This document shows, piece by piece, positions 975 through 11,823 of a stretch of DNA of 64,000 nt (position 1 is its first letter; each line of letters opens with the position of its first letter). The notes under the pieces are model-generated. The model was given only the letters and a program-made list of their open reading frames with translations. It ran no database searches and was not told the DNA's origin. This DNA is from Candidatus Bathyarchaeota archaeon (GTDB lineage Archaea > Thermoproteota > Bathyarchaeia > Bathyarchaeales > Bathycorpusculaceae): contig CAWHDT010000003.1 of assembly GCA_963828195.1 (NCBI GenBank), positions 32,001 to 96,000 of the forward strand, read 5' to 3'. The position numbers and the translations under genes were made by a program.

Positions 975-1075
975 AGTTCACAGTAAACAATAATGTTTAC
1001 AAATCACTTAAAAGTTTTGCCTCCAGAGGAACCCAACAGCGGCAAGGGCAGATTCGTTACTTCTAACTAAGTGAT

Positions 1076-2560
1076 TTACCAGCTGAGGTTTTTGGTCAAA
1101 TCATCTGATGTAAAAACAATATCTGGGTTAAGCAGAGCTTTGGTGTCAAAGATTTTTTTGATTTGCTCAAAGTACCCATAGATTTTGTTCCCCCATTCCT
1201 GGCGAAGGTACTTAGACCTGTTTCTTCCCAATCCATGCTCGCCTGTTATGGTGCCGCCTGCTTTCAAGGTGGCTTCGAAGATTGCGTTGGAAAGTTTTCT
1301 CAGGTTTTCTTCCCAATTTTCTTTGCAGATCATCGGCCTGACATGGATGTTTCCTTCGCCTGCGTGACCGTAAATCACCGCAGCAGTCCCAAATCGGTCC
1401 AGTATATCTTGAATGGCGACCAAAAAATTGGGCATTTGGTTGATAGGCACCGCAAGGTCATCTGCAAAGGGTGGAAACCGCTTCTCTGGTGTTTCCAGTT
1501 TGCTCATTATCCAAAGAAGCATCGATTCCCGTACTTGCCAAAGCTCAGCTTGCTTTTTCACGTCGGTTTCAACTAGAAAGTTGATTGATTTTTCTTTCAA
1601 ATGATTTCTCATGAGGGTATCTGCCTGATCCAAGTCAGAGTCAAACTCCACAAGCAAAACAGCTCGGCAGTCTAGCGGAACATTAACCTCGTTTCTAAGC
1701 AAGTCAACACCGTAAGAATCCATGGCCTCAAGGGCTGACGGCTCAAAAACCTTTATTTCAATCACGGCTTCTGCAGCCTTGAACAAAGAGCGGAAAAACA
1801 GCAGATAAAGGCTGGTATTTTTGGGGCAGGGAACCGCCTCCAACTCGACCTCGCTGAAGACACCCAGTGTCCCAACAGATCCCGCCAATAGATGAGTAAC
1901 AATTTCAGCAGGCGCTTCGTAATCGTAAAAGCTTTTCAGGTTGTATCCGCTGCTTGATTTCAAGTTTCTTCTCGACTCCAAGATACGGGTTGTTTCTATG
2001 TCGTTTCTAAGCCGACTTTTTAGGTCAACGATTGCTTCCTCGAGTTTTCCTGGCAACCCATGCCACGTATCTATTAATCCATGTTCGATATCGAAGAAAC
2101 GGAGATTTCTAAGAGCAGAATTAACTGTTCCATACTTGAGGCTCCGCAAGCCGCTTGCTTTCGTTGCAACATTTCCGCCGATGGTACAGAATGAGCGGGA
2201 AGTCGGGTCGTATGGAATTCGAAGCCCATCAGCGTTCAGCTGCTGGTCCAGTTGCTGATGGATTACGCCTGGCTGAACCCTTACTCTTCGCCCTTCCCTC
2301 TCGATGATGGCGTGCATTTTGGAGAAGAGAACAATGATGCCTGAGCCAACGGCTGAACCAGACTGATTGGAACCCCCACCCCGCGGGGTTATTGGGACAG
2401 CTTCTGCTTTGGAGTAAGCAATTATCTTCGCTAAGTCCTCTTCGTTTGTGGGAACCGCAATCATCAAAGGTTTGACTGCATAATGACTCATGTCGATTGA
2501 ATACTTTTTAATAGATGCCCCGTCGGTTAGCACTTCGCCAGAGATTTGTAGTTGCCTCAA
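1076..2560 (-). CDS. FAD-linked oxidoreductase, GlcD/D-lactate dehydrogenase-like
   Basis: PRGGGS, CTIGGNVAT, GSVGTLG, GHAGEGNIH, GEHGLG, LNP motifs. Confidence 0.88.
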   Translation of the reverse strand: MRQLQISGEVLTDGASIKKYSIDMSHYAVKPLMIAVPTNEEDLAKIIAYSKAEAVPITPRGGGSNQSGSAVGSGIIVLFSKMHAIIEREGRRVRVQPGVIHQQLDQQLNADGLRIPYDPTSRSFCTIGGNVATKASGLRSLKYGTVNSALRNLRFFDIEHGLIDTWHGLPGKLEEAIVDLKSRLRNDIETTRILESRRNLKSSSGYNLKSFYDYEAPAEIVTHLLAGSVGTLGVFSEVELEAVPCPKNTSLYLLFFRSLFKAAEAVIEIKVFEPSALEAMDSYGVDLLRNEVNVPLDCRAVLLVEFDSDLDQADTLMRNHLKEKSINFLVETDVKKQAELWQVRESMLLWIMSKLETPEKRFPPFADDLAVPINQMPNFLVAIQDILDRFGTAAVIYGHAGEGNIHVRPMICKENWEENLRKLSNAIFEATLKAGGTITGEHGLGRNRSKYLRQEWGNKIYGYFEQIKKIFDTKALLNPDIVFTSDDLTKNLSW

Positions 2561-2594
2561 TCTCTGCCTCCAACATTAATTTTAGACGGCAAAG

Positions 2595-3941
2595 TCACGC
2601 GTACCTTTCCTGCTGCGCCAACGGGTTGGTCCATTTAATTATTGCGCTAACTGAGTTCTGGTTAAACCCCTTAAACCCTTGCCCCCTCTCAATATTCTCC
2701 AAGTGGCTGGCAACGGCGCCGTCCCGAGAAAAAGTTGAGGCTTGATCCTCGTTTAGTTGATGATTTTTCACCAACTGAGCTAACTTGTCTTCTTTCACCT
2801 GCCACTTCTCAGGTTCCGTGAATGCTTGCTTCAGAAAGGGGAAATTTGAGAAAGGCTTCATCATTCCGACGCCTGCACTTTTGAGGTCTTCTTGAACGCT
2901 GTCGAAACGAAATTTAGCGGCTAAATGATGCATGCCTGCTTCAAGAATGCTTTCGCCATGCAGACCAACCCATAAGCCAACTGTGCCAAGCTTTTCCTGC
3001 GGCTTGAGCCCTTGATGCGCGAAGTCAACGTCTTTTTCTTCCCTAGACAAATCTACGTCTGCAAAAACAACGTTTCTTCCATCTGTGTCTTCCAAGATTT
3101 GGGCACCCCAACCTGCCTGGGCTCCAGCGTGGAATCTTTCCCGCGGGTTTAAGCCTAAGTGCTCAAAAATTCTGATGAGGGAAACAAAGTTCTGCCTTGA
3201 AGACCTAAAGGTGTGGTGGTCAACGTTGCCCCAGCCCCCTCCGACTTGATCCTGCCTTCTCTTTTGAACCGTGGCCGCATGGTTTCTGCTCTCCCAATAG
3301 CGTCTTTCTGCTCGGAAGAACGCGTCGGCTAATCTCTTCTTGCTAATTTTGGTGCCCAAGGATGCGAGGAGCTTTTCTGTCTCCAACAAGCCTTCTTCAC
3401 CTGAAGCAAATGTTCTTTGTCGAGAACCTAAAGCTCCAGATGCCTCAATGTACGAATCAACATCGTCGCTATCCTCAACACAGTACCCTGAAGAGCCGCG
3501 CCTCTCAACAGCCGAAAACAAAAAGTCGCCTTCGCCCGTCAGCATCAATTTTCTGAAAGCCGCGTTAGGTTCCCCCTGAATGTTTTTTTCTTCGGCAAAG
3601 ACTTTGCGAAAGTCATCGATGTCTTCCACGCCAAATGCAAGCTCCAAAGCCTTGCCTTTTTTTAAAAGCATCGGGAACAATACGCTGCCTTCAACTCGAA
3701 AAACAGATGAGCCATCGGTTAATTTTGATTCTTGAAAACCCATTTTAAAAAGGTCATCCACATCCACTTGTTCCGATGGGACTGCTAGGTGGTCAACCCA
3801 ATCAAAAATTCTTGTCGAAGTCTGCTGCTTAATCTCATCAGCTAAGGTTGCCGCATAATTGTTCTTGCTTAAGAATTCGTCAAGTTTTGTCTGCAGGAAA
3901 GATTCTGCTTTTGGAAAAAGAGCCCAATCAAACTTGTTCAA
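2595..3941 (-). CDS. conserved hypothetical protein, possibly VOC/glyoxalase-like metalloenzyme
   Basis: 448 aa ORF; VDHL, DHHTFRSSR, GMHHLA, HLENIER (putative His/His/Glu metal ligands); in operon with the FAD oxidoreductase. Confidence 0.6.
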   Translation of the reverse strand: MNKFDWALFPKAESFLQTKLDEFLSKNNYAATLADEIKQQTSTRIFDWVDHLAVPSEQVDVDDLFKMGFQESKLTDGSSVFRVEGSVLFPMLLKKGKALELAFGVEDIDDFRKVFAEEKNIQGEPNAAFRKLMLTGEGDFLFSAVERRGSSGYCVEDSDDVDSYIEASGALGSRQRTFASGEEGLLETEKLLASLGTKISKKRLADAFFRAERRYWESRNHAATVQKRRQDQVGGGWGNVDHHTFRSSRQNFVSLIRIFEHLGLNPRERFHAGAQAGWGAQILEDTDGRNVVFADVDLSREEKDVDFAHQGLKPQEKLGTVGLWVGLHGESILEAGMHHLAAKFRFDSVQEDLKSAGVGMMKPFSNFPFLKQAFTEPEKWQVKEDKLAQLVKNHQLNEDQASTFSRDGAVASHLENIERGQGFKGFNQNSVSAIIKWTNPLAQQERYA

Positions 3942-4194
3942 GTAACGCTCTCCTTTTCATGAAAAAAGTTTCTACTTAACAGTATACTCCCTCGGCTAAA
4001 TAAGCTTGAAATCTGATAAATCATGGGCAAAGCGCCGAAGGTTAAGCGTTTAATGTGAAGCTTTCAGCTAAAGTGAATCTATCACGCGTTTTTTTATGGG
4101 GTTTTTCTTTTCGGCAAGGCAGAATTGGTCGAGCAGCCAAGCGCTTTCCCGAAAACCTTTTAAATCCAGCCTGCGAATCCTTTTTACGGTAAAC

Positions 4195-4365
4195 ATGTCA
4201 TCAAAAAAAGATAAAGCTAAAGAAAAAATCGAAGTAGACGCTAAAAAGACTAAAGAAGACGCAAAAAAGGTCGGCGGAGACCTAAAGAAAGCGGGTAAGA
4301 AAGGCGCCGAAGAAGTCAAAAAAGTCGGCGAAGAAGTTAAAGCAAAACTTCACAAAAAATCTTAA
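4195..4365 (+). CDS. small Lys/Glu-rich LEA/CsbD-like protein
   Basis: ATG at 4195 downstream of TTTAAA; repeated KKVG(G/E)(D/E) units; T-rich terminator follows. Confidence 0.65.
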   Translation: MSSKKDKAKEKIEVDAKKTKEDAKKVGGDLKKAGKKGAEEVKKVGEEVKAKLHKKS

Positions 4366-4536
4366 ACCCGCTTTTCTCTTTTTTTGGCAATTAGCTCACC
4401 CGAATGGTAGGCTCTGCCCAGAAGTGAGCAAATCTTACTGCACATTTTTGAAAAAATATGGAGTATTTGTTGGCTGTAATGATGGAACGCGGATTTTCTT
4501 GCTGGAAGGGCTTGAGAAAAAATGTTTGTTCATTAC

Positions 4537-4579
4537 TGTAGTCACCTCACCATTAAAATTTAAATCTGTGTAGTCACCT
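4537..4579 (+). promoter_or_regulatory. direct repeat TGTAGTCACCT flanking the TATA box of the fic gene
   Basis: Identical 11-mers at 4537-4547 and 4569-4579 with TTTAAAT between them. Confidence 0.55.
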
Positions 4580-4588
4580 AATATATTT

Positions 4589-5530
4589 GTGCACGTCGAA
4601 ATTAGAGAAAAGAATGGTTCACGTAAATACTATTTAGCGCACTCTTATAGAGTCGGAAAATTCGTAAAAAAAGTTAGAGTTTACCTCGGCACAAACTTAA
4701 CTCACGAGGAATTAAAACAAAAAAGAAAAATGGCTGAAGCCAAACTTAAAGAACGGATAAAGCAAGCCGAATCAATCCATGACCCCTATTTAACACCGCT
4801 TTCGTCCTCAGAATCAAAAGAGCTTGAAACTCTTGAAGCGCGAGGGGAATTACGAGTACCTCGTCTCTCAGAACTTGACTGGGACAAGTTCAAGGAAGCA
4901 TTTACCTATAATACAAACGCTATTGAAGGTTCACGGGTTAAATCTAATGAAGTTGCAGACATTCTTAGAAAGAGAAAATGGCCACCAAACGTAAGCAAAG
5001 AGGATATTGCGGAAACCTATGGAGTCGCTGAAGCAGTGGACTACATTCGTAAAACCAAAGAATGCGTTTCCTTGAGACTTATAAAACAACTTCACAAAAT
5101 AGTTTTTAAGAATTCAAAGCATTTTGCAGGGGAATTTAGAGAAAAAGGTGTGGAAGTAATAGTTGCTGACTCATATGGAAATGTTATTCACCGTGGAGCA
5201 CCATCGTGGCAAATTGAGGAACTGCTAAAAGATTTGGTTCGGTGGTATAATCGGAATAAGGAAATGTGTCCTTCGCTGGTTTTAGCCGCCGTTGTTCATA
5301 ATCAATTCGAAAACATTCATCCATTCCAAGATGGAAACGGCAGGGTTGGAAGATTGCTCCTTAACAATATCCTGTTAAAGCATGATCTTCCGCCTTTAAA
5401 CATTGAACTAAAAAATAGAGCGCAGTATTATGAGGCTTTACAAATCTATGAAAAAGACCACAACATACGTCCCACTATAGATTTAATGCTTAAAGAATAC
5501 AGGGCACTTAAGAAGATCTTACATAGGTGA
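4589..5530 (+). CDS. Fic family protein (AMPylase-type)
   Basis: Canonical HPFQDGNGRVGR motif; TNAIEG motif. Confidence 0.92.
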   Translation: MHVEIREKNGSRKYYLAHSYRVGKFVKKVRVYLGTNLTHEELKQKRKMAEAKLKERIKQAESIHDPYLTPLSSSESKELETLEARGELRVPRLSELDWDKFKEAFTYNTNAIEGSRVKSNEVADILRKRKWPPNVSKEDIAETYGVAEAVDYIRKTKECVSLRLIKQLHKIVFKNSKHFAGEFREKGVEVIVADSYGNVIHRGAPSWQIEELLKDLVRWYNRNKEMCPSLVLAAVVHNQFENIHPFQDGNGRVGRLLLNNILLKHDLPPLNIELKNRAQYYEALQIYEKDHNIRPTIDLMLKEYRALKKILHR

Positions 5531-5575
5531 CCACAAATTTCGCATGCGTAGTCACCTCTAATACGATTTGGTTTT

Positions 5576-5620
5576 TGGCGCGGGATGTTAGGTTTACACC
5601 CACGTTTAAATCCACACGAA
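5576..5620 (-). repeat. tRNA-Ser 3'-end-derived site A (att-like) plus arm motif
   Basis: TGGCGCGGGATGT is identical to 9936-9948; CACGTTTAAATCCACACGAA at +25. Confidence 0.8.
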
Positions 5621-5750
5621 AAATTTAGGAAGAAAAACGCAATACGCTGTTGTTCTGAACTCAAAAAAGCTCAAAGAAGTTAAATAGAAAGAAAAAAAGA
5701 ATTTTGAATTCGTAGTTTCCCTTTGTCGTTGTCTAAAAGATGGGTGCGGT

Positions 5751-6188
5751 TTACCCGAATGTTACGTATTTTTTGGGCTCCATCATGTTAGCTCTGCTCC
5801 AGTGGTGAGCCTGGCATTTTGCTACCTTCATGATGACCAACTCGGGGCTTTCTGCCGTTATGCCCATTTGCTTGAGGAAGGGCCGCGCTTCTATCACTTT
5901 CCGCTTCATCTCCAGATCTTGCACAAACTCCACCTTGCCCGTGACCCGCACCATGTCTCCGCTTTTGCTTTTGTAGTCGAGGAAGCAGACTTCTACTTTG
6001 GGATTGGCTTTAAGCTGCTTATAGACATCTTTGCTCGCATCCATGCTGTAGTAGAGTCCGGTTTTGTCGGCGGAGAAAAGCTGCAGCGCACGCACTTTCG
6101 GCTGGTCGCCATCTAAGGTGGCGAAGAAGCTGATTGGGTTGTCGGTTACAAACTTGAGAATTTCGTTCAATTCCATAATTATCGCCAA
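5751..6188 (-). CDS. pyridoxamine 5'-phosphate oxidase-like (split beta-barrel flavin-binding) protein
   Basis: FFATLDGDQPKVR, KDVYKQLKANPKVEVCF, VRVTGKVEF. Confidence 0.88.
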   Translation of the reverse strand: MAIIMELNEILKFVTDNPISFFATLDGDQPKVRALQLFSADKTGLYYSMDASKDVYKQLKANPKVEVCFLDYKSKSGDMVRVTGKVEFVQDLEMKRKVIEARPFLKQMGITAESPELVIMKVAKCQAHHWSRANMMEPKKYVTFG

Positions 6189-6367
6189 GCAGTAAGAGTG
6201 GCGACGACGATTATAGGCTTTTCCTAAGCAGGCGAGCGGCGGTTTGGCAGTTTGTAGAGCCTCGCGAGACTTAACGCCGGTGTGGTTAGGATGAATTTGG
6301 ATTAACCCGAATTACCTTACTTGCTTTCTATATAGTAAGCGGCTCACAAATTAACGGAATTTGGAAA

Positions 6368-6412
6368 TGGGCGGGATGTCAAATTTTGCATTCACTTTCA
6401 AATTTCACGCAG
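6368..6412 (-). repeat. tRNA-Ser 3'-end-derived site B plus arm motif
   Basis: GAATTTGGAAATGG-GCGGGATGT matches the tRNA end and its flank with a 1-nt deletion; CACTTTCAAATTTCACGC at +25. Confidence 0.75.
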
Positions 6413-6537
6413 GTAATAACCGTCTTTTTAAAAAGAATCAAGAGATGATAGGTTGCTGTCTTAAGCCAGCCACAAATGTTTATTTTTCGCTCCCTCTTTG
6501 AGAAATGGCGGAGTAAAAGTTATGTCATTAAATGTGA

Positions 6538-7041
6538 ATGGGCAAAGAGTACACTCCCTGGAAGATTCCTATGTCAGAACAAGCGGCATCTAAGGAAGAA
6601 GCCCTGAAAGAACCGGTGCGGCCTCATCAGCCGGGCCAGTCGACGTTCCGAGCGATCCTCGCCGAAGGCGTTGAGTGGAAACCGTTCGCGGCGTTTCCGC
6701 CGGAAGCACGCTTGGCGGTTCTGGTTGGCCGACCCTTGGAGCCCGGACCTTATACCATCAGGGTAAAGGTGCCTAACGGGGTGAAACTGATGCCTCACTG
6801 GCATCCTGAGGACCGCGTTTACACGGTCATTTCCGGGGTCTTCTACATCGGCTTAGGCGATAAATTCGACGCCGATAAGCTAGAGGCATATCCACCCGGC
6901 GCTGTAATTATTCTTCCCGGCAACACTTCCCACTTTCACTGGGCAAAGTCCGGCGAATACGTCACGCAGGTAACCGCCATAGGGCCACTCGGTCTGGAAT
7001 ATGTCGACTCGAAGGACGATCCGCGGAATGTTCCCCGTTAA
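6538..7041 (+). CDS. cupin domain protein
   Basis: PHWHPEDRVYTVISG and PGNTSHFHW cupin motifs; visibly GC-richer than neighbours; start may be 6571. Confidence 0.88.
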   Translation: MGKEYTPWKIPMSEQAASKEEALKEPVRPHQPGQSTFRAILAEGVEWKPFAAFPPEARLAVLVGRPLEPGPYTIRVKVPNGVKLMPHWHPEDRVYTVISGVFYIGLGDKFDADKLEAYPPGAVIILPGNTSHFHWAKSGEYVTQVTAIGPLGLEYVDSKDDPRNVPR

Positions 7042-7076
7042 TACGCGCGCTGGTTTGCCCTAAAAATCACTAATAT

Positions 7077-7508
7077 TTATGTTTGGGTTGGAGTTGCGCG
7101 TACCGCGTCTAATTTCTTCCTTCCGAAGACTAAAGCCCCTAAAAAGAGTAAGCCGAAACCTACAACGAAAGCTATGACAACGTTCGCACCTAACGAACCA
7201 CCAGAGCCTTCAGAAAAACCATAGCCACCAGAAAGAAGATCAAGAACTGACCCGAATACAAGAAAAGTTAGTCCTAAATAAGCCATAAACCTGCCAATCT
7301 TCATCTTCTCGGTGAGCATTATTGGTGTTTTTCTGCGTTTGAAGCCTGAGATACCAAAATAAGCCATAGACATTCCCATCGATGATACCACAGCGCCCAG
7401 AATTGGAATTGTGCTAATGAGAAAGACAAGATAGATACCGAATCCTAAAATAAGTAATCCAGCCAATCGGACAGCTAGATCTGAATTTCTTATTGGATTC
7501 ACAGACAT
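7077..7508 (-). CDS. hypothetical membrane protein (about 4 TM)
   Basis: Four hydrophobic segments. Confidence 0.65.
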   Translation of the reverse strand: MSVNPIRNSDLAVRLAGLLILGFGIYLVFLISTIPILGAVVSSMGMSMAYFGISGFKRRKTPIMLTEKMKIGRFMAYLGLTFLVFGSVLDLLSGGYGFSEGSGGSLGANVVIAFVVGFGLLFLGALVFGRKKLDAVRATPTQT

Positions 7509-7769
7509 GTAATGGATCCTTTACTATTTCAATTCCTATGGCTTTATGTTTTTTCTCTATTAATATTTTAGGGACAAAGCGGCGCCCTAAACCCCTTTTA
7601 CAATTTAGGGCGTGAGTGGGGGATCCCATCACTAGTTCACGAGTAAAAGTATGCACTGAAGGGCGCGAAATAAGTGCTGTCCTTGAACGCATATAGACTA
7701 AACCTAAAGCGCTCATAGAATGGCTTGAGCGCTTAGCGGTTTAAGACTTCTCATACCGTCGTGTTAAAC

Positions 7770-8156
7770 TCAGGGCTTCATCAAGGTAACGTGAATAGGT
7801 TCTATTCTCAAAATGACCCTATCTCCGTGCTGTCTGTAATCCATGCCTATGTACTTATGCGCTAACTTATCGATATGTTCCTCAGCGCCTTCTTTTCTTA
7901 TCTCAACAACCTTGCCCCTAATGAAAAGCGAATCGTACGGGTCGTTCATGTTGAATACGCTTATCGCCACACGAGGATCCCGCCTAATATTCCTTGTCTT
8001 GACCCTGTTCTCAGTCGTATTAATCAGTACGACGTCGCCGTCGTGGTCTACCCAAGTGGTCGTTACGTGCGGGGAACCATCCCTCATCAATGTGCCTATG
8101 TTTGCGAAATTTTTTGCCTCAATCAATTGCTTCGCTTTTTCAGGAAGGTTTACCAT
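7770..8156 (-). CDS. PPOX class F420-dependent oxidoreductase family protein
   Basis: GTLMRDGSPHVTTTWVD, KTRNIRRDPRVAISV, HIDKLAHKY. Confidence 0.88.
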   Translation of the reverse strand: MVNLPEKAKQLIEAKNFANIGTLMRDGSPHVTTTWVDHDGDVVLINTTENRVKTRNIRRDPRVAISVFNMNDPYDSLFIRGKVVEIRKEGAEEHIDKLAHKYIGMDYRQHGDRVILRIEPIHVTLMKP

Positions 8157-8386
8157 GCAGCCACCATTTACTAAGACGGATGGAACGAAGATTAATAGTT
8201 TTCTTGGCAGCGCGTCGTGAAATGCCGTATGGCAAGTGGGGCGGGGGCGAACGCTGATTTGTGTGCAACTTAAACGCTGAATTAAATTGGATTGCCTAAA
8301 CGGTTGAAACGCAAATTAGAAGCCAACAACTCATGGTTCATTTTTAGAAATAAATGAATGTTAAGCCTTATTTGGCAAAAAGAGCT

Positions 8387-8430
8387 TGGCGCGGGATGTT
8401 GGATTTGAACCCACGCGGCCTTTCGACCAC
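8387..8430 (-). repeat. 44-bp copy of tRNA-Ser 3' half (site C, attR-like)
   Basis: 43/44 identical to 9936-9979; weak similarity continues to about 8448. Confidence 0.92.
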
Positions 8431-8521
8431 CTCAGACTTTCTGACCTGTAGAATCGCGGGCATCTTTGTAACAATATTTTTTAATGTTTTTTGACAATTG
8501 TTAAATACGGCTCTATGATAT

Positions 8522-8749
8522 TTGGGTTTGATGGATATGACGTCTGAAGCAGAGTTGAAAGAGATTCGAAGTCTGCTTGTGGAACTGAACAAAAAAGTGC
8601 AAGGGCTCAATGAGTTGGTGGAAGAGAGGCTAATAGGCTGTGAGGTGCCCACCAAAGAGGATGTTGAAGCCATAAACGAGTATGAAGCTTCAAAGAAAAG
8701 CAAAAAACTCCACGTTGAGCCTCTAAGCGAACTATCAAAAGGGAATTAG
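8522..8749 (+). CDS. putative antitoxin
   Basis: Small acidic protein (PTKEDVEAINEYE...PLSEL) 3 bp upstream of relE; start uncertain (8537 possible). Confidence 0.7.
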   Translation: MGLMDMTSEAELKEIRSLLVELNKKVQGLNELVEERLIGCEVPTKEDVEAINEYEASKKSKKLHVEPLSELSKGN

Positions 8750-8752
8750 CTG

Positions 8753-9019
8753 TTGCCTAAGCATCTGGTTTTTGTAGAAAGCAAAGCCAAAAAACAATTC
8801 AAGAAGTTGCCCAAAGAAAACCAAACAAGGGTTCTTGCAGCTCTGAAAACCTTGGAAGACGAAGGCTTTTCTGCAAGGTTAGACCTCAAGAAGCTGCAAG
8901 GGTATAGAAGCCATTACCGTATAAGAGCGGGCAGAATTATACGAATAAGGTTTGAGCTTTCGGCAGACGGAACAATTGTTGTTTACTCTATTTCAATGCG
9001 CGAAAATGCATACGAATAG
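8753..9019 (+). CDS. RelE/ParE family toxin
   Basis: AKKQFKKL, DLKKLQGY, YRIRAG, RENAY. Confidence 0.85.
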   Translation: MPKHLVFVESKAKKQFKKLPKENQTRVLAALKTLEDEGFSARLDLKKLQGYRSHYRIRAGRIIRIRFELSADGTIVVYSISMRENAYE

Positions 9020-9085
9020 GCGCTGACAAAACCAAGGTTTTTAAGCAATTTCTTTCAGCAGACCGTAGTTGCAAGGAGGTTTAAG

Positions 9086-9131
9086 TGGCGCGGGATGTCA
9101 GTTTTACATTCACGTTTAAATTTCACGCGAA
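9086..9131 (-). repeat. tRNA-Ser 3'-end-derived site D plus arm motif
   Basis: TGGCGCGGGATGT exact; CACGTTTAAATTTCACGCGAA at +25. Confidence 0.8.
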
Positions 9132-9226
9132 GCGCCGTGAATGCCGGAATAAGTGAATAAAGTATAAAACCAATATGTTCAAATCGCCAAAACTGTTAAG
9201 ATCCCATTTCGTATGGTTTGTTTGAT

Positions 9227-9688
9227 CTATTTGCTTAGTCCTAGCTGTTGCATGAATCCAACAAAGTCATAAAATAGTCTTTCTTCGACGATTTCGCCGT
9301 TCTTCCAGGTGGCTACGGTGCAGAATTCAAGCTTAGCTGTCTTTCCGGTTGGTTGGATGATCTTTCCGTCTGCGCTTTTCATGGGTCCTTTCATCGTTAC
9401 TGTCCAGTCGGCGACTGTGCATGTGTGGTCTCCATCTCCAAATGCGATCTTGTAGGGGTTATTGACTATTTTGTTGTCGAAAGTTTTGAAGAACTCTGTA
9501 GCTTCGACATCGTGGTTGTGCCTTCCTATCGTGGGAAGGGGTTGCGCTGGCCAGTAAACCTTAACGTCTTCTCTGTGACGTTTCTTAAACGTCTCCCAGA
9601 GGGGGCTGTTTGGACCTGCGTTCCAGGCGTCATCAAGGGTTTTCATCAACTCGAGATTTTCTTTTGATCCCATCTTGCATTCACCCAA
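9227..9688 (-). CDS. SnoaL-like ester cyclase (NTF2 fold)
   Basis: DDAWN, IQPTGK, FCTVATWKNGEIVEERLFYD...QQLGL; start probably 9673. Confidence 0.85.
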   Translation of the reverse strand: MGECKMGSKENLELMKTLDDAWNAGPNSPLWETFKKRHREDVKVYWPAQPLPTIGRHNHDVEATEFFKTFDNKIVNNPYKIAFGDGDHTCTVADWTVTMKGPMKSADGKIIQPTGKTAKLEFCTVATWKNGEIVEERLFYDFVGFMQQLGLSK

Positions 9689-9828
9689 ATTATCCTGTTA
9701 AAAATCTCTGTGTCTAGATTCTGCATTGTTTCGCTTAAAAGCCTTGCGTGAGCTTCTCTGGTTGTTTAAAACGCGAATGTGTTCCAGTGCAATTGTCTTT
9801 CAGGAGCTTCTTCTTGAAGCGGGATTTA

Positions 9829-9847
9829 TTCGCGTGTAATTTAAACG
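9829..9847 (-). repeat. inverted copy of the 19-bp arm motif
   Basis: Reverse complement CGTTTAAATTACACGCGAA is 18/19 identical to 9113-9131; another inverted copy (15/19) at 8258-8276. Confidence 0.75.
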
Positions 9848-9874
9848 CTTGACCTGAGGAGGTAAATCTCAATT

Positions 9875-10315
9875 TCATGCGATAATTTGAGTATAATCAT
9901 TAAAAATAGGTTCAGAAATAGGCTGAATTTGGAAATGGCGCGGGATGTGGGATTTGAACCCACGCGGCCTTTCGACCACAGACTTAGCAGGCCTGCCCCC
10001 TACCAGGCTAGGGCAATCCCGCACGAAACTGTTTTGTTGTTCCAAGCCTGATTTAGACATATTAAGATGTTCAATTTGAACACCTAAGTGGTCGGTCTCA
10101 GCCATCTCAGTATGAGGTAATTTAATTAAAGTTTTCTGAACATTTAAACCACAGCCTTTGCTTAGCTGCAGTTCTGCGTATTCCTTAGACTGTTGATGAT
10201 AGAAGAATTTGCTTTTACCATACTCAGCTTTGCCTGCATAATGCCTAACTCTGTAGTAGTTGCCTAATTGCTGAAGATAACCTTCTCGCTTACATACTTC
10301 ACATATTATTCTCAT
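9875..10315 (-). CDS. Zn-finger-like ORF reading through tRNA-Ser; candidate split-integrase N-terminal fragment
   Basis: MRIICEVC...YYRVRHY...YHQQ; TTTATA upstream; frame stays open across the whole tRNA. The integrase link is inference. Confidence 0.5.
   Translation of the reverse strand: MRIICEVCKREGYLQQLGNYYRVRHYAGKAEYGKSKFFYHQQSKEYAELQLSKGCGLNVQKTLIKLPHTEMAETDHLGVQIEHLNMSKSGLEQQNSFVRDCPSLVGGRPAKSVVERPRGFKSHIPRHFQIQPISEPIFNDYTQIIA
9936..10022 (-). tRNA. tRNA-Ser(GCT), CCA encoded
   Basis: GCGGGAT/ATCCCGC acceptor stem, CAGGC-CTGCTAA-GTCTG anticodon arm, long variable arm, GGTTCAAATCC T-loop, G73, CCA. Confidence 0.96.
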
Positions 10316-10437
10316 TTTATCACATTCTAGGTTTTGGTCTTCTGGGGTGGTCAACTTTGGATATAAAGACCATTAAAACAAAAATAGGGAGCGTTAAGCA
10401 AAGATATTATATTCAAAATAAACTATGAAGCATTGTT

Positions 10438-10779
10438 GTGGGAGCAATGTTAAGAGACATTAAACTAATGCTTGTGGCTAATGCATTCTTAAGTTTGCTT
10501 TTTGTTTATACTAACTACTTCATTTGGGCAGGTTTCAACATAAGCCCCAAAGGCTACATTAATTTATTAACCTATGGACCTGGCATAATTGGTTATCACT
10601 TATATTTTCTTGTCAATGGTCAGATGGAAGGTTTTAATGGAGCATATTTTGTTACGTTTAACTTTCCTTTCTGGCTCTTCTTTCTGGCAATAGCAGTAAA
10701 CATGTACTTCATCTTTAGACTCCAAAGAAGCATCGAAGGAAAACAGCATTCTGAGTGGGGAGCCCCTCTGCCACCTTGA
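10438..10779 (+). CDS. hypothetical membrane protein
   Basis: 2-3 hydrophobic segments in AT-rich DNA. Confidence 0.6.
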   Translation: MGAMLRDIKLMLVANAFLSLLFVYTNYFIWAGFNISPKGYINLLTYGPGIIGYHLYFLVNGQMEGFNGAYFVTFNFPFWLFFLAIAVNMYFIFRLQRSIEGKQHSEWGAPLPP

Positions 10780-11385
10780 GAGGTCCTTGAATTAAAGAAG
10801 ACAGCTAAAAGAATATGCTCTAAATGTTTAATCTTCTGTTATGAAGCAAATGTGCGATAAATATTCTTGCTGACCCAGTCAAGCTTGCCATATGTGCTCT
10901 ATATTCAAAGTAATATGCCCAGAAGTATATTACTTGTTTACAGCTGGCTGGGGCACCGTTACTTTATATATAATCTTTAAAGAAATTTCTTGTTAAGATT
11001 CTTCAGCCTTTACCTTTAACCTCTTAACCATCGAAACTTAGCTGGTGTTCAATGTACCATGAGGGGGCTGAGCCTAAAAAGACTGTGCCCTTTTGCACAC
11101 CAAACTTTGGCTTTTAAGAAGTAGATAGGCTGATAAAGTAGGCAAAAGATTTCGGCTTTTCTAGATTGATGAGGATCATGAAATCACTTGCCCTTTTCAG
11201 GTGCAAATAACGCCAATCCACCGAAGTAAATATCTAGGCAAGCCTTCATCCAAAATGGGGCTAACAAGGGAGGAAAAGCAGACAACGCCAGACGAAGGAT
11301 TAGAAAATATTTTCATCACCAAGACAGAAATAGAGAAATACCTGTAGTCTCAACAGTAAAGTAGACCTTTGCGGTAGGGTTTTGT

Positions 11386-11823
11386 ATGGTTGGAAAGTTA
11401 TCAAAAGCGGATGTAGCCTTCATGCAGAAATTGCCAGTGTGCAGAATGGCAACGGCAACCGAAGAGTGTGAGCCAATTGTGAGGCCTGTTTGGCCCGTAT
11501 TTGACGGCGTACATATCTATATTGCGACTGACCCTGACACACCCAAGCTGGAACACATAGAAGCAAACCCTGAGGTGTCACTGGTGTTTGATGATTACGA
11601 CCGAAACAACTGGTCAAACATCAAGGGCGTCCGCGTGCAGGGAGAAGCGACAGTTATATTGAAAGGCAAAGAATACCGTTACGCACATGATCTTCTCAAG
11701 GAAAAGTACCCTGAGTACCAAACAGAGGAAGGCAGCTGGAAAGAAGGCGACATACCAATAATCAAGGTACTGCCGACATCTTTCACGACGTGGGCACAAG
11801 GCGAATGGAAAAAGCAGCCTTAA
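11386..11823 (+). CDS. pyridoxamine 5'-phosphate oxidase family protein
   Basis: CRMAT, PVWPVFDG, KLEHIEANPEVSLVFD, GVRVQGEA. Confidence 0.87.
   Translation: MVGKLSKADVAFMQKLPVCRMATATEECEPIVRPVWPVFDGVHIYIATDPDTPKLEHIEANPEVSLVFDDYDRNNWSNIKGVRVQGEATVILKGKEYRYAHDLLKEKYPEYQTEEGSWKEGDIPIIKVLPTSFTTWAQGEWKKQP

Follow-up and report, generated by a model that had tools for sequence, protein, structure and literature searches.

The stacking of integrative elements in tandem at tRNA genes is a known concept, and it includes the integrase-less cis-mobilizable elements (CIMEs) of streptococcal integrative and conjugative elements. A further point of reference is the attachment site of phage lambda (attP), in which arm-type binding sites for the integrase Int flank the core. 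Bathyarchaeia are abundant and uncultured, and to our knowledge almost nothing is known of their gene exchange. The term CIME is used in the literature, for example in PMC5704250 and PMC6323972. Tycheposons of Prochlorococcus, as described in bioRxiv 10.1101/2020.12.28.424599, encode a recombinase of their own, of the tyrosine or large serine type, and often have replication genes; their attachment (att) sites typically measure ~40 nt. The suicidal integrases of SSV, pTN3 and pT26-2 are described as having attP inside the integrase gene (PMC8371274; PMC7253208), and the review PMC8371274 links PF16795 (Phage_integr_3) to them. Here, we describe an array of small cassettes behind the tRNA-Ser(GCT) gene in a 64,000-nucleotide stretch of DNA from a Candidatus Bathyarchaeota archaeon (the window, meaning the stretch at its full length). 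A 19-bp motif of this array belongs to a conserved sequence at the boundaries of the cassettes, which carry no integrase. The boundary sequence is probably a docking or control site for the integrases of related mobile elements.

The genome of the window (G000) is 96% complete; Gnnn denotes genomes of the same genus and Lnnn fetched loci. On the plus strand, TGGCGCGGGATGT, the reverse complement of the tRNA-Ser(GCT) 3′ end, is found at 5576 (site A), 8387 (site C) and 9086 (site D), and once more at 9936, the end of the tRNA itself. Site B, at 6368, reads TGGGCGGGATGT, which differs from TGGCGCGGGATGT by a 1-nt deletion. The cores at 5576, 6368 and 9086 are 10–13-nt copies of the 3′ acceptor strand of tRNA-Ser(GCT) plus CCA, whereas core C is a true 44–46-nt copy of the 3′ half of the tRNA; the tRNA gene is intact. 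Cores A, B and D are each followed by a module of ~33 nt (to ~45 nt in many copies), which core C lacks. The module consists of TAGGTTTACA(TT/CC)CAC and then GTTTAAATT(T/C)CAC(G/A)CGA, that is, a degenerate T-arm-like stretch of 15 nt and an arm of 17–19 nt, with the 19-bp motif as its outer half. The first stretch has the likeness of a tRNA T-arm without keeping the T-arm stem. Core plus module bound three of the four integrase-less cassettes stacked between 5576 and tRNA-Ser(GCT) (Table 1).

A previous examination of this DNA, made from its letters alone (the sequence-only reading), had placed the CACG that begins the motif 25 nt from the T of TGG at sites A, B and D, and direct reading gave the same positions (5601, 6393 and 9111). 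Its view that only the first CACG is tRNA-like has to be revised, since the 15 nt after the core resemble the T-arm (10/17 by eye) and the junction is therefore more tRNA-like than supposed. Relative to the 19-mer of site D, the arm copy at B (6395–6413) is identical at 14/19 positions, and the arm of site A matches only with a 1-nt deletion (by eye). A 21-mer searched at ≤3 mismatches gave 2 matches in the window, compared with 0.01 expected, and the 12-nt core at ≤1 mismatch gave 4, compared with 0.15 expected. Genome-wide, the 19-mer at ≤4 mismatches has 20 matches, five of them beside tRNA-derived cores or in a pre-core region (see below); the remaining 15 have 3–4 mismatches and are scattered, at about the level of chance for an AT-rich 19-mer, the expectation being estimated. 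The motif is linked to the core far above chance, and the contrary outcome that had been envisaged, a motif scattered at ordinary promoters, was not observed.

Every core is preceded by a non-coding pre-core region, and two conserved types of it can be distinguished. Type II starts with an inverted arm and ends GGCTGAATTTGGAA at the junction with ATGG, and type I ends ...ATTTGGCAAAAGGAGC before the core. As the sequence-only reading had proposed, inverted copies lie on the minus strand at 9829–9847, with 18/19 identity to site D and a gap of 88 nt to the core (9847 to 9936), and at 8258–8276, with 15/19 identity and a gap of 110 nt to core C (8276 to 8387). A weak third copy suggested at 6261–6276 could not be upheld: there is no match at ≤5 mismatches, and the identity of ~11/16 counted by eye is not above chance when taken alone. 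The word ATTTGG stands before cores A and B and before the tRNA, as had been noted, and also precedes core C.

Among the 156 junctions with enough upstream sequence, the inverted 17-mer at ≤4 mismatches is present in 23, always 83–111 nt before the start triplet of the core, compared with 2/146 downstream control segments of equal length. An earlier count gave 12/76 junctions versus 13/5000 random genome segments. The box TTTAAAC is present at arm distance in 21/153 junctions, and the whole arm accompanies it in 18 of these 21. The inward-facing arm pair is real and fixed in position, and it marks a subfamily of junctions that includes two of the four in the window. The two-arm geometry initially proposed for the cassettes (83–111 nt before the core and 25 nt after it) thus recurs in independent genomes; what did not hold is its generality. 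Since the upstream inverted arm is found in so few junctions, it is not a general requirement, and the module after the core is the invariant part.

We also considered the inverted arm as part of a longer inverted copy of the module, but a GTAARCC-like word follows the arm in only 4/23 cases, and this candidate was rejected. Eleven aligned type II junctions share ~110 conserved nt, and RNAalifold predicted no conserved fold in their pre-core region; the sole predicted structure is a 10-bp hairpin of the core with ACA(YY)CACG of the module, with 0 compensatory changes. The same pre-core types precede both Ser and Leu cores and stand beside different cargo. The type II region of the window, for example, is 84% identical to L052 10164–10298 (G127), where the cargo gene beside it is a different one.

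Table 1. Features of the cassette array between position 5576 of the window and the tRNA-Ser(GCT) gene.
Feature	Positions	Strand	Description
Core A	5576..5588	+	13-nt reverse complement of tRNA-Ser(GCT) 3′ end plus CCA; outermost recognisable junction
Module A	5589..5619	+	T-arm-like TAGGTTTACACCCAC, then arm with 1-nt deletion; 'ACACCC/TTCCAC' variant
Cassette 1 cargo	5751..6188	-	PNPOx-like protein, 145 aa
Core B and module B	6368..6413	+	12-nt core with one base deleted; diverged module, arm 14/19
Cassette 2 cargo	6538..8156	both	Cupin (+), 143-aa protein without Pfam match (-), PNPOx-like protein (-)
Type I pre-core region	8258..8386	+	Inverted arm 8258-8276 (15/19); ends ...TTATTTGGCAAAAAGAGCT before core C
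Core C	8387..8432	+	44-46-nt copy of tRNA 3′ half, 98% over 44 nt; no module
Cassette 3 cargo	8522..9019	+	Two small open reading frames, toxin-antitoxin-like layout
Core D and module D	9086..9131	+	13-nt core; reference arm copy 9113-9131
Cassette 4 cargo	9227..9688	-	SnoaL-like protein
Type II pre-core region	9829..9935	+	Inverted arm 9829-9847 (18/19); ends GGCTGAATTTGGAAA abutting tRNA 3′ end
tRNA-Ser(GCT)	9936..10022	-	Intact; Rfam tRNA 54.9 bits; array anchor, attachment site

The module is shared by several tRNA targets. Elsewhere in G000, it also follows Leu-type cores at C1:278275 (1 kb downstream of tRNA-Leu(GAG)), C1:289063 and C5:141466, and a diverged module with a further core lies on C6, 0.6 kb after a tRNA-like gene. 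In other genomes, the exact 26-mer stands behind both Ser and Leu cores. At ≤3 mismatches of 26, a scan of 120 genomes of the genus found the module in 37 and gave 0 matches for the reversed control; no copy was found in 16 genomes from other families of the order. The exact degenerate pattern occurs in 55 stretches of species-representative genomes, 52 of which are titled as metagenome-assembled genomes of Bathyarchaeota or Bathyarchaeia and 3 of which bear other names. More than 123 stretches were found in metagenome contigs, from which 80 loci were fetched, and 0 exact matches in a viral contig collection. Pooling the sequences gave 165 distinct module sites at ≤5 mismatches, which include orthologues and related genomes, so that counts among them are not independent. 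The 10-nt cores of these sites are Ser(GCT) in 64, Leu(GAG) in 16 and GTGCAGGGGG in 9 cases, the last matching the end of tRNA-Leu(TAG) in G000, and variants in the rest; many are degenerate. Between 2 and 4 co-oriented modules, spaced 0.35–6 kb apart, end at tRNA-Ser(GCT) or tRNA-Leu(GAG) in 7/10 fetched regions. The claim of the sequence-only reading that the cassettes share a dedicated signal tied to the core is borne out by these data, the module being fused to at least 4–5 different tRNA acceptor ends and conserved across the genus.

Other tRNA genes of G000 have comparable surroundings. In C1:277135-290279, a 1-kb cassette holding a DUF7347/helix-turn-helix (HTH) gene stands behind tRNA-Leu(GAG), and a module comes after it; ~13 kb further on, C1 carries an inverted 54-nt copy of the 3′ half of tRNA-Leu with an oppositely oriented module. 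This arrangement looks like an inversion between att copies. Partial 3′ copies of 47–59 nt lie 0.8–1.4 kb downstream of tRNA-Asn, tRNA-Ala(CGC) and tRNA-Thr(GGT), and on C4 two full tRNA-Cys genes and a partial copy are found within 6.7 kb. At the tRNA genes of G000, small insertions are frequent.

The cassettes behave as units whose neighbours change. G016 carries a cassette (L044 5078-5821) with 83% identity to cassette 1 over 753 nt, and the neighbours of the two differ. G095 and G130 share a 1.9-kb cassette with 85% identity; the similarity begins at the core, and the neighbours on both sides differ, being a Fic gene and a gene-less mini-cassette of 345 bp in G095 and an ArsB cassette and the tRNA in G130. 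Certain cassettes are 91% identical between genomes, compared with 78–86% for their flanks. The PNPOx gene across the tRNA (window 11386-11823) is conserved in several genomes, which indicates that the same locus is being compared and that its content is variable; indeed, cassette sets at this locus vary widely among congeners. The sequence-only reading had regarded the cassettes as shared units rather than random island debris, and the finding of the same cassette beside different neighbours across species, with homology starting at the core, agrees with it. The crossover can be placed within the ~11 nt GCGCGGGATGT, because the module is replaced by the tRNA body on the proximal side, and the pre-core regions or flanks are not the same on the other.

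In eight arrays, for which 82 open reading frames (ORFs) were scanned, the cargo comprises accessory enzymes, transporters (ArsB, ABC systems), redox proteins and catalase-peroxidase, further HicA/PIN, Fic and DUF7347 HTH proteins, one rve transposase, one IS200-like fragment and no tyrosine recombinase, with genes on either strand. In the window, the second ORF of cassette 3 has a weak Gp49/RelE-like match (E 0.0026, below the Pfam cut-off), the SnoaL-like gene of cassette 4 shares 78% identity with one from the G127 tRNA-Ser array, and 50 nt at module A are 98% identical to L049 8260-8309. DUF7347 HTH proteins are found in or beside four module-bounded cassettes at different tRNAs (L110 3403-4224, L043 13190-14104, L044 2447-3154 and L112 4618-5934) and may be ordinary regulators or a cassette-linked DNA-binding factor. 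The 345-bp unit of G095 (L045 9976-10337) lies between a normal cassette and the tRNA and consists only of core, module and ~300 nt of non-coding DNA; L187 has a similar unit of ~660 bp, and both may represent the family in its minimal form.

Integrases that use the same core are present in related arrays. A tblastn search with the five integrases of G000 against the 80 metagenome loci (212,871 nt) gave one match, in L187, where the integrase lies 0.63 kb after the module; the homologues of this integrase are 61–71% identical to one another. The broad family to which it belongs was rejected as the cause of the module distribution, being present in 99/120 genomes. Two layouts were distinguished. 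In layout 1 (L187 and G091), the integrase ORF starts at the core as ATG/GTG GCG CGG GAT GTG GGA... (M/V-ARDVG..), the antisense of the tRNA end; immediately in front of it lies a pre-core region, which in L187 is of type II and includes the arm and in G091 is of type I. In both cases (L187 2187-3077 and, for G091, L263 7131-8018), the start codon is made up of one extra base and the complement of the tRNA CCA. The overlap with the core is limited to codons 1–9 (the first 5–9), and at the distal junction the ORF remains full, with 295–296 aa. The first codons of these integrases are antisense of the acceptor and T-arm, and the gene stays whole on integration while its upstream region changes. 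In G091, a module cassette adjoins the 7.2-kb integrase element, which also has AbiV-HEPN and HNH genes, in the same tRNA-Ser array.

In layout 2, the integrase follows the tRNA. That of G122 lies directly after tRNA-Ser(GCT) and reads away from it (L261:4858-5796), and the element is closed 5.5 kb away by a module (5/26 mismatches) with a degenerate core, beside which lies a conserved gene for an aminoacyl-tRNA synthetase. The tRNA-like gene in front of the G016:C6 integrase scores 40.5 bits in Rfam and has an anticodon loop that reads CCU; a module with 6/26 mismatches and a core matching the end of that tRNA lie 10.7 kb away. When the att sites were compared, integrase elements and cassettes were found to have the same core, with the cassettes' pre-core types before the integrase ORF in two elements and a diverged module at the far end in two others, which is a small sample. 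Pfam scans of the integrases listed PF00589 only; PF16795 was not listed at E ≤ 0.01 or 0.001 and was below cut-off in G000. The fetched loci L249-L260, which surround other integrases of the genus, yielded no match to the motif. Tyrosine recombinases of 470–510 aa lie 4–20 kb from contig ends in G000 (C6:5712, C5:949941 and C7:19940) and also in G016, G095 and G127, and on two G016 contigs the recombinase has the same offset, which suggests a multi-copy element that breaks assemblies.

The arms also resemble promoters. The tRNA genes of G000 have TTTAAAT/TTTAAAG boxes with A-rich bases upstream, ~30–40 nt before the mature 5′ end; read as GTGAAATTTAAAC, the arm fits this pattern, and both arms point at the core. 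The triplet that includes the complement of CCA is ATG, TTG or GTG at 101/165 junctions, and C before TGG is rare (2/63). Shine-Dalgarno (SD)-like words stand 3–14 nt before the triplet in 23/106 junctions, compared with 8, 0 and 3 at shifted positions. The type II arm of L187 is located 89 nt upstream of the integrase ATG. The module as the start of a protein gene was rejected, the in-frame ORFs from the core having a median of 24 codons and reaching ≥60 codons in only 8/106 cases. Relatives with an integrase would have these sequences immediately before the integrase gene, so that a promoter or operator role for the arm appears at least as likely as that of an arm-type binding site. Most likely, the arm would serve as a protein-binding site or operator of the recombination module and double as a B recognition element (BRE)/TATA promoter aimed at the core.

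The data establish the repeat anatomy and its conservation, the link to several tRNA ends, the breakpoints at the core, the species-variable cargo and the same-core integrases of related arrays; circular forms, mobilisation in trans, protein binding and promoter activity are inferred. We lean, if only slightly, towards the view that the module cassettes are non-autonomous members of a tRNA-targeting integrative family of one Bathyarchaeia genus from peat and soil, with core and module as attP-derived ends, and that they are moved in trans. A circular cassette would carry the pre-core region, core and module side by side as attP, and a tyrosine integrase from an autonomous relative, acting in trans, would exchange strands within the ~11 bases shared with the tRNA 3′ end. 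The tRNA would thereby be rebuilt, and the pre-core region of the cassette would become its new trailer; older cassettes would shift outward, and the array would grow. A change of core would retarget the family to other tRNAs. Circularisation of a layout 2 element would put the module just upstream of the integrase across the core, and the arm GTGAAATTTAAAC would then point at the integrase.

Several observations weigh against this view. For G000, contigs and profile and homologue searches revealed neither a circle or excision product nor a cognate integrase, and six-frame searches detected PF00589 neither in the array of the window nor in those of five other genomes. The five PF00589 matches of G000 are all far from the arrays, and neither these genes nor any long ORF begins in a tRNA-antisense core. 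No G000 homologue of the core-using integrase was detected at E ≤ 1e-20, the best local matches being 26–34% identical, and close homologues (≥60% identity) occur in only 3/120 genomes plus one pseudogene. Only 2 + 2 integrase-bearing examples are available. G091 and G122, two of the three genomes with close homologues, have no module at ≤3 mismatches of 26, their copies being diverged with 4 and 5 mismatches; the modules of both layout 2 elements are degenerate (5–6/26 mismatches), and the G091 element whose ORF starts at the core shows no arm on its own tRNA-proximal side. The upstream inverted arm is missing from ~85% of junctions, and the counts among the pooled sites share the dependence described above. 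The genes flanking cassette 1 are 79–86% identical between G000 and G016, and the outer flank (window 1075-3986) is 79% identical, much like the 83% of the cassette itself, so that at least cassette 1 is old and vertically inherited. Contigs of four DNA runs gave no core-to-core joint over 5000-10400, although they are of low depth and fragmentary and cannot show absence; the single joint listed (6702-6916) falls within the cupin gene, on a contig of high depth that probably belongs to another organism. Contigs have loose ends precisely at position 9934 in run X2 and at 5575/5624 in run X5, with other sequence adjoining the tRNA end or the module, which fits variable neighbours; the contigs were accepted at ≥90% likeness, and other species are possible.

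A broader conception, to which we give only a minor chance, is that the arrays are an archaeal integron-like gene-capture platform built from tRNA parts. Each cassette would leave a "landing pad" behind the tRNA, with a promoter-like arm ~90–110 nt upstream and sometimes an SD-like word. An A, T or G would turn the complement of CCA into ATG, TTG or GTG, and a core-starting gene of the next element, such as an integrase, would be switched on; the module would likewise serve integrases that abut the tRNA after circularisation. Integrase-less cassettes would be moved in trans, and retargeting would require only a swap of the ~11-nt core.

The recombination role of the arms may be questioned altogether. 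They could be BRE/TATA boxes, either vestiges of integrase promoters or outward or inward promoters of neighbouring genes, whose spacing reflects the distance from promoter to start; the match of the tRNA boxes to GTGAAATTTAAAC on both sides of the core, the L187 arm before the integrase ATG, the preference for NTG triplets over C and the excess of SD-like words all agree with this. Yet where TTTAAAC is present upstream it is the whole 17-mer that is kept in 18/21 cases, not the box alone; the module arm is present regardless of the orientation of the adjacent gene, the gene of cassette 4 being solely on the minus strand; with a median core-starting ORF of 24 codons, most such promoters would have nothing to express; and the motif was not found at the other integrase loci fetched. 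We regard an exclusively promoter-based explanation as unlikely, though worth keeping in mind. Less probable still are inert scars, that is, fossils of a few ancient full-size integrations that lost their integrase and the majority of their genes and have since changed by ordinary deletion or homologous recombination between repeats. The flank-like divergence of cassette 1, the missing cognate integrase, the many degenerate cores, the apparent inversion on C1 between tRNA-Leu and the inverted 54-nt copy 13 kb away, and a 64-nt duplication at junction B (described below) are all what such scars would leave. They would not account for the identical 26-mer behind cores of different tRNAs, the recurrence of the same pre-core types beside different cargo and before Ser and Leu cores, the widely different cassette sets of congeners at one locus, or the cassettes that are more alike (91%) than their flanks (78–86%), and the six-frame PF00589 search revealed no integrase pseudogene fragments in the arrays.

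The remaining explanations concern other kinds of element. The 10–13-nt direct repeats that flank each cassette and the inverted arms near both ends of some would suit a transposon with terminal inverted repeats, similar to a casposon or a miniature inverted-repeat transposable element, whose 13-nt core is the target-site duplication of a staggered cut, and G000 has three Cas1 genes. However, the right-hand arm lies 83–111 nt from the core instead of abutting it and is mostly absent, the tyrosine integrases of related elements overlap the same core, and the Cas1 genes, which are probably CRISPR-associated, are far from any array, which makes such a transposon very unlikely. Similarly improbable is a small RNA, encoded by pre-core region, core and module, whose complement to the tRNA 3′ end guides a recombinase or regulates the tRNA: the promoter-like arms do converge on a conserved non-coding stretch of ~110 nt with a target-identical core, but Rfam gave no match besides the tRNA, and the alignment-based folding found no structure in the pre-core region and a core/module hairpin devoid of compensatory changes. 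A classical integron-type array, with clustered attC sites and no integrase, can be put aside almost entirely. Small accessory and toxin-antitoxin-like cassettes are arrayed with no integrase nearby, and the arms end or begin with AAC/GTT; against this, the tRNA replaces the module at the end of the array, so that the crossover is at the core and not at a GTT site, no attC-like folded palindrome is present, genes lie on both strands, and the account of archaeal integrons in PMC9668308, in the passages searched, does not mention tRNA.

The array has some further features. Cassette 3 (8387-9085) is bounded on the outside by the long tRNA copy instead of core plus module and is without the usual pre-core region; a long tRNA copy ~0.7 kb before a module site is also found in G019 (L001) and, for tRNA-Leu, in G003 (L003). 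Just before core B, GAATTTGGA occurs twice, 64 nt apart (window 6293-6365), and the orthologous junction of G016 has a single copy directly before the core, which implies that junction B of the window holds a 64-nt duplication or mini-insertion. Outside core A, window 3987-5575 contains a lysine-rich 89-aa ORF and a Fic-domain gene (4589-5530), where G016 and G075 have other genes, and in G095 and G116, too, the tRNA-Ser array has a Fic gene at its outer end; window 3987-5575 may represent older cassettes with decayed boundaries. A 448-aa protein (2595-3941) was considered as an anchor gene or recombinase and rejected, having no Pfam/NCBIfam match and being present in 8/120 genomes only. In G075, its gene and tRNA-Ser are separated by 1.3 kb that hold different genes and lack a module, so that the locus is not a clean empty site. 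At a permissive E-value, Rfam searches over 4500-11000 gave only the tRNA and one chance-level miRNA match.

Literature searches on integrons and attC sites of Bathyarchaeia, on their integrases and tRNA attachment sites and on archaeal integrase-less tandem elements gave no description of this cassette family. The cassette boundary provides a marker for a flexible gene pool (redox, stress, transporter and toxin-antitoxin genes) in peat and soil metagenomes. It also gives a defined attP/attB pair and candidate integrases for archaeal site-specific recombination with very short homology, and the arrays are a test case for non-autonomous cassettes that build "islands" at tRNA genes.

The arrays share features with several known systems and are identical to none of them. 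Like integrons and clusters of attC sites lacking integrases, including the archaeal ones described in PMC9668308, they consist of small accessory-gene cassettes, usually without a nearby integrase, and their content varies among relatives. Unlike those described there, they have no attC structure and no IntI, use the tRNA 3′ end as attachment site, and carry genes on both strands without a common promoter; no integrase lies beside the tRNA of the window. With the suicidal integrases, as presented in PMC8371274 and PMC7253208, the integrases of G091 and L187 have in common an ORF that overlaps the att core, and the promoter-like pre-core region would part from the gene on integration. Here, however, the overlap is at the extreme 5′ end, the ORF stays whole (295–296 aa), the family is PF00589 and not PF16795, and the hosts are mesophilic Bathyarchaeia of peat and soil instead of hyperthermophiles. 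The likeness to tycheposons, as far as described in the preprint, lies in cargo elements at few tRNA genes, in tandem units split by partial tRNAs with older ones pushed inward, and in degenerate remnants; the differences are the stacked units without recombinase, the target identity of 10–13 nt and the archaeal host. In a subset of junctions, inverted repeats lie ~100 nt on one side and ~25 nt on the other side of a short core, as in lambda attP, but these arms are putative sites, one of them is missing from ~85% of junctions, and they also fit the host promoter consensus. Similar to CIMEs, the cassettes are att-bounded, lack recombination genes and gather beside autonomous relatives at one site, and mobilisation by the integrase of a relative is proposed for them. 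They differ from CIMEs in being archaeal and much smaller (0.35–6 kb), in having no conjugation machinery, and in their ends, which combine 10–13 nt of target identity with a conserved non-tRNA module and serve several tRNAs.

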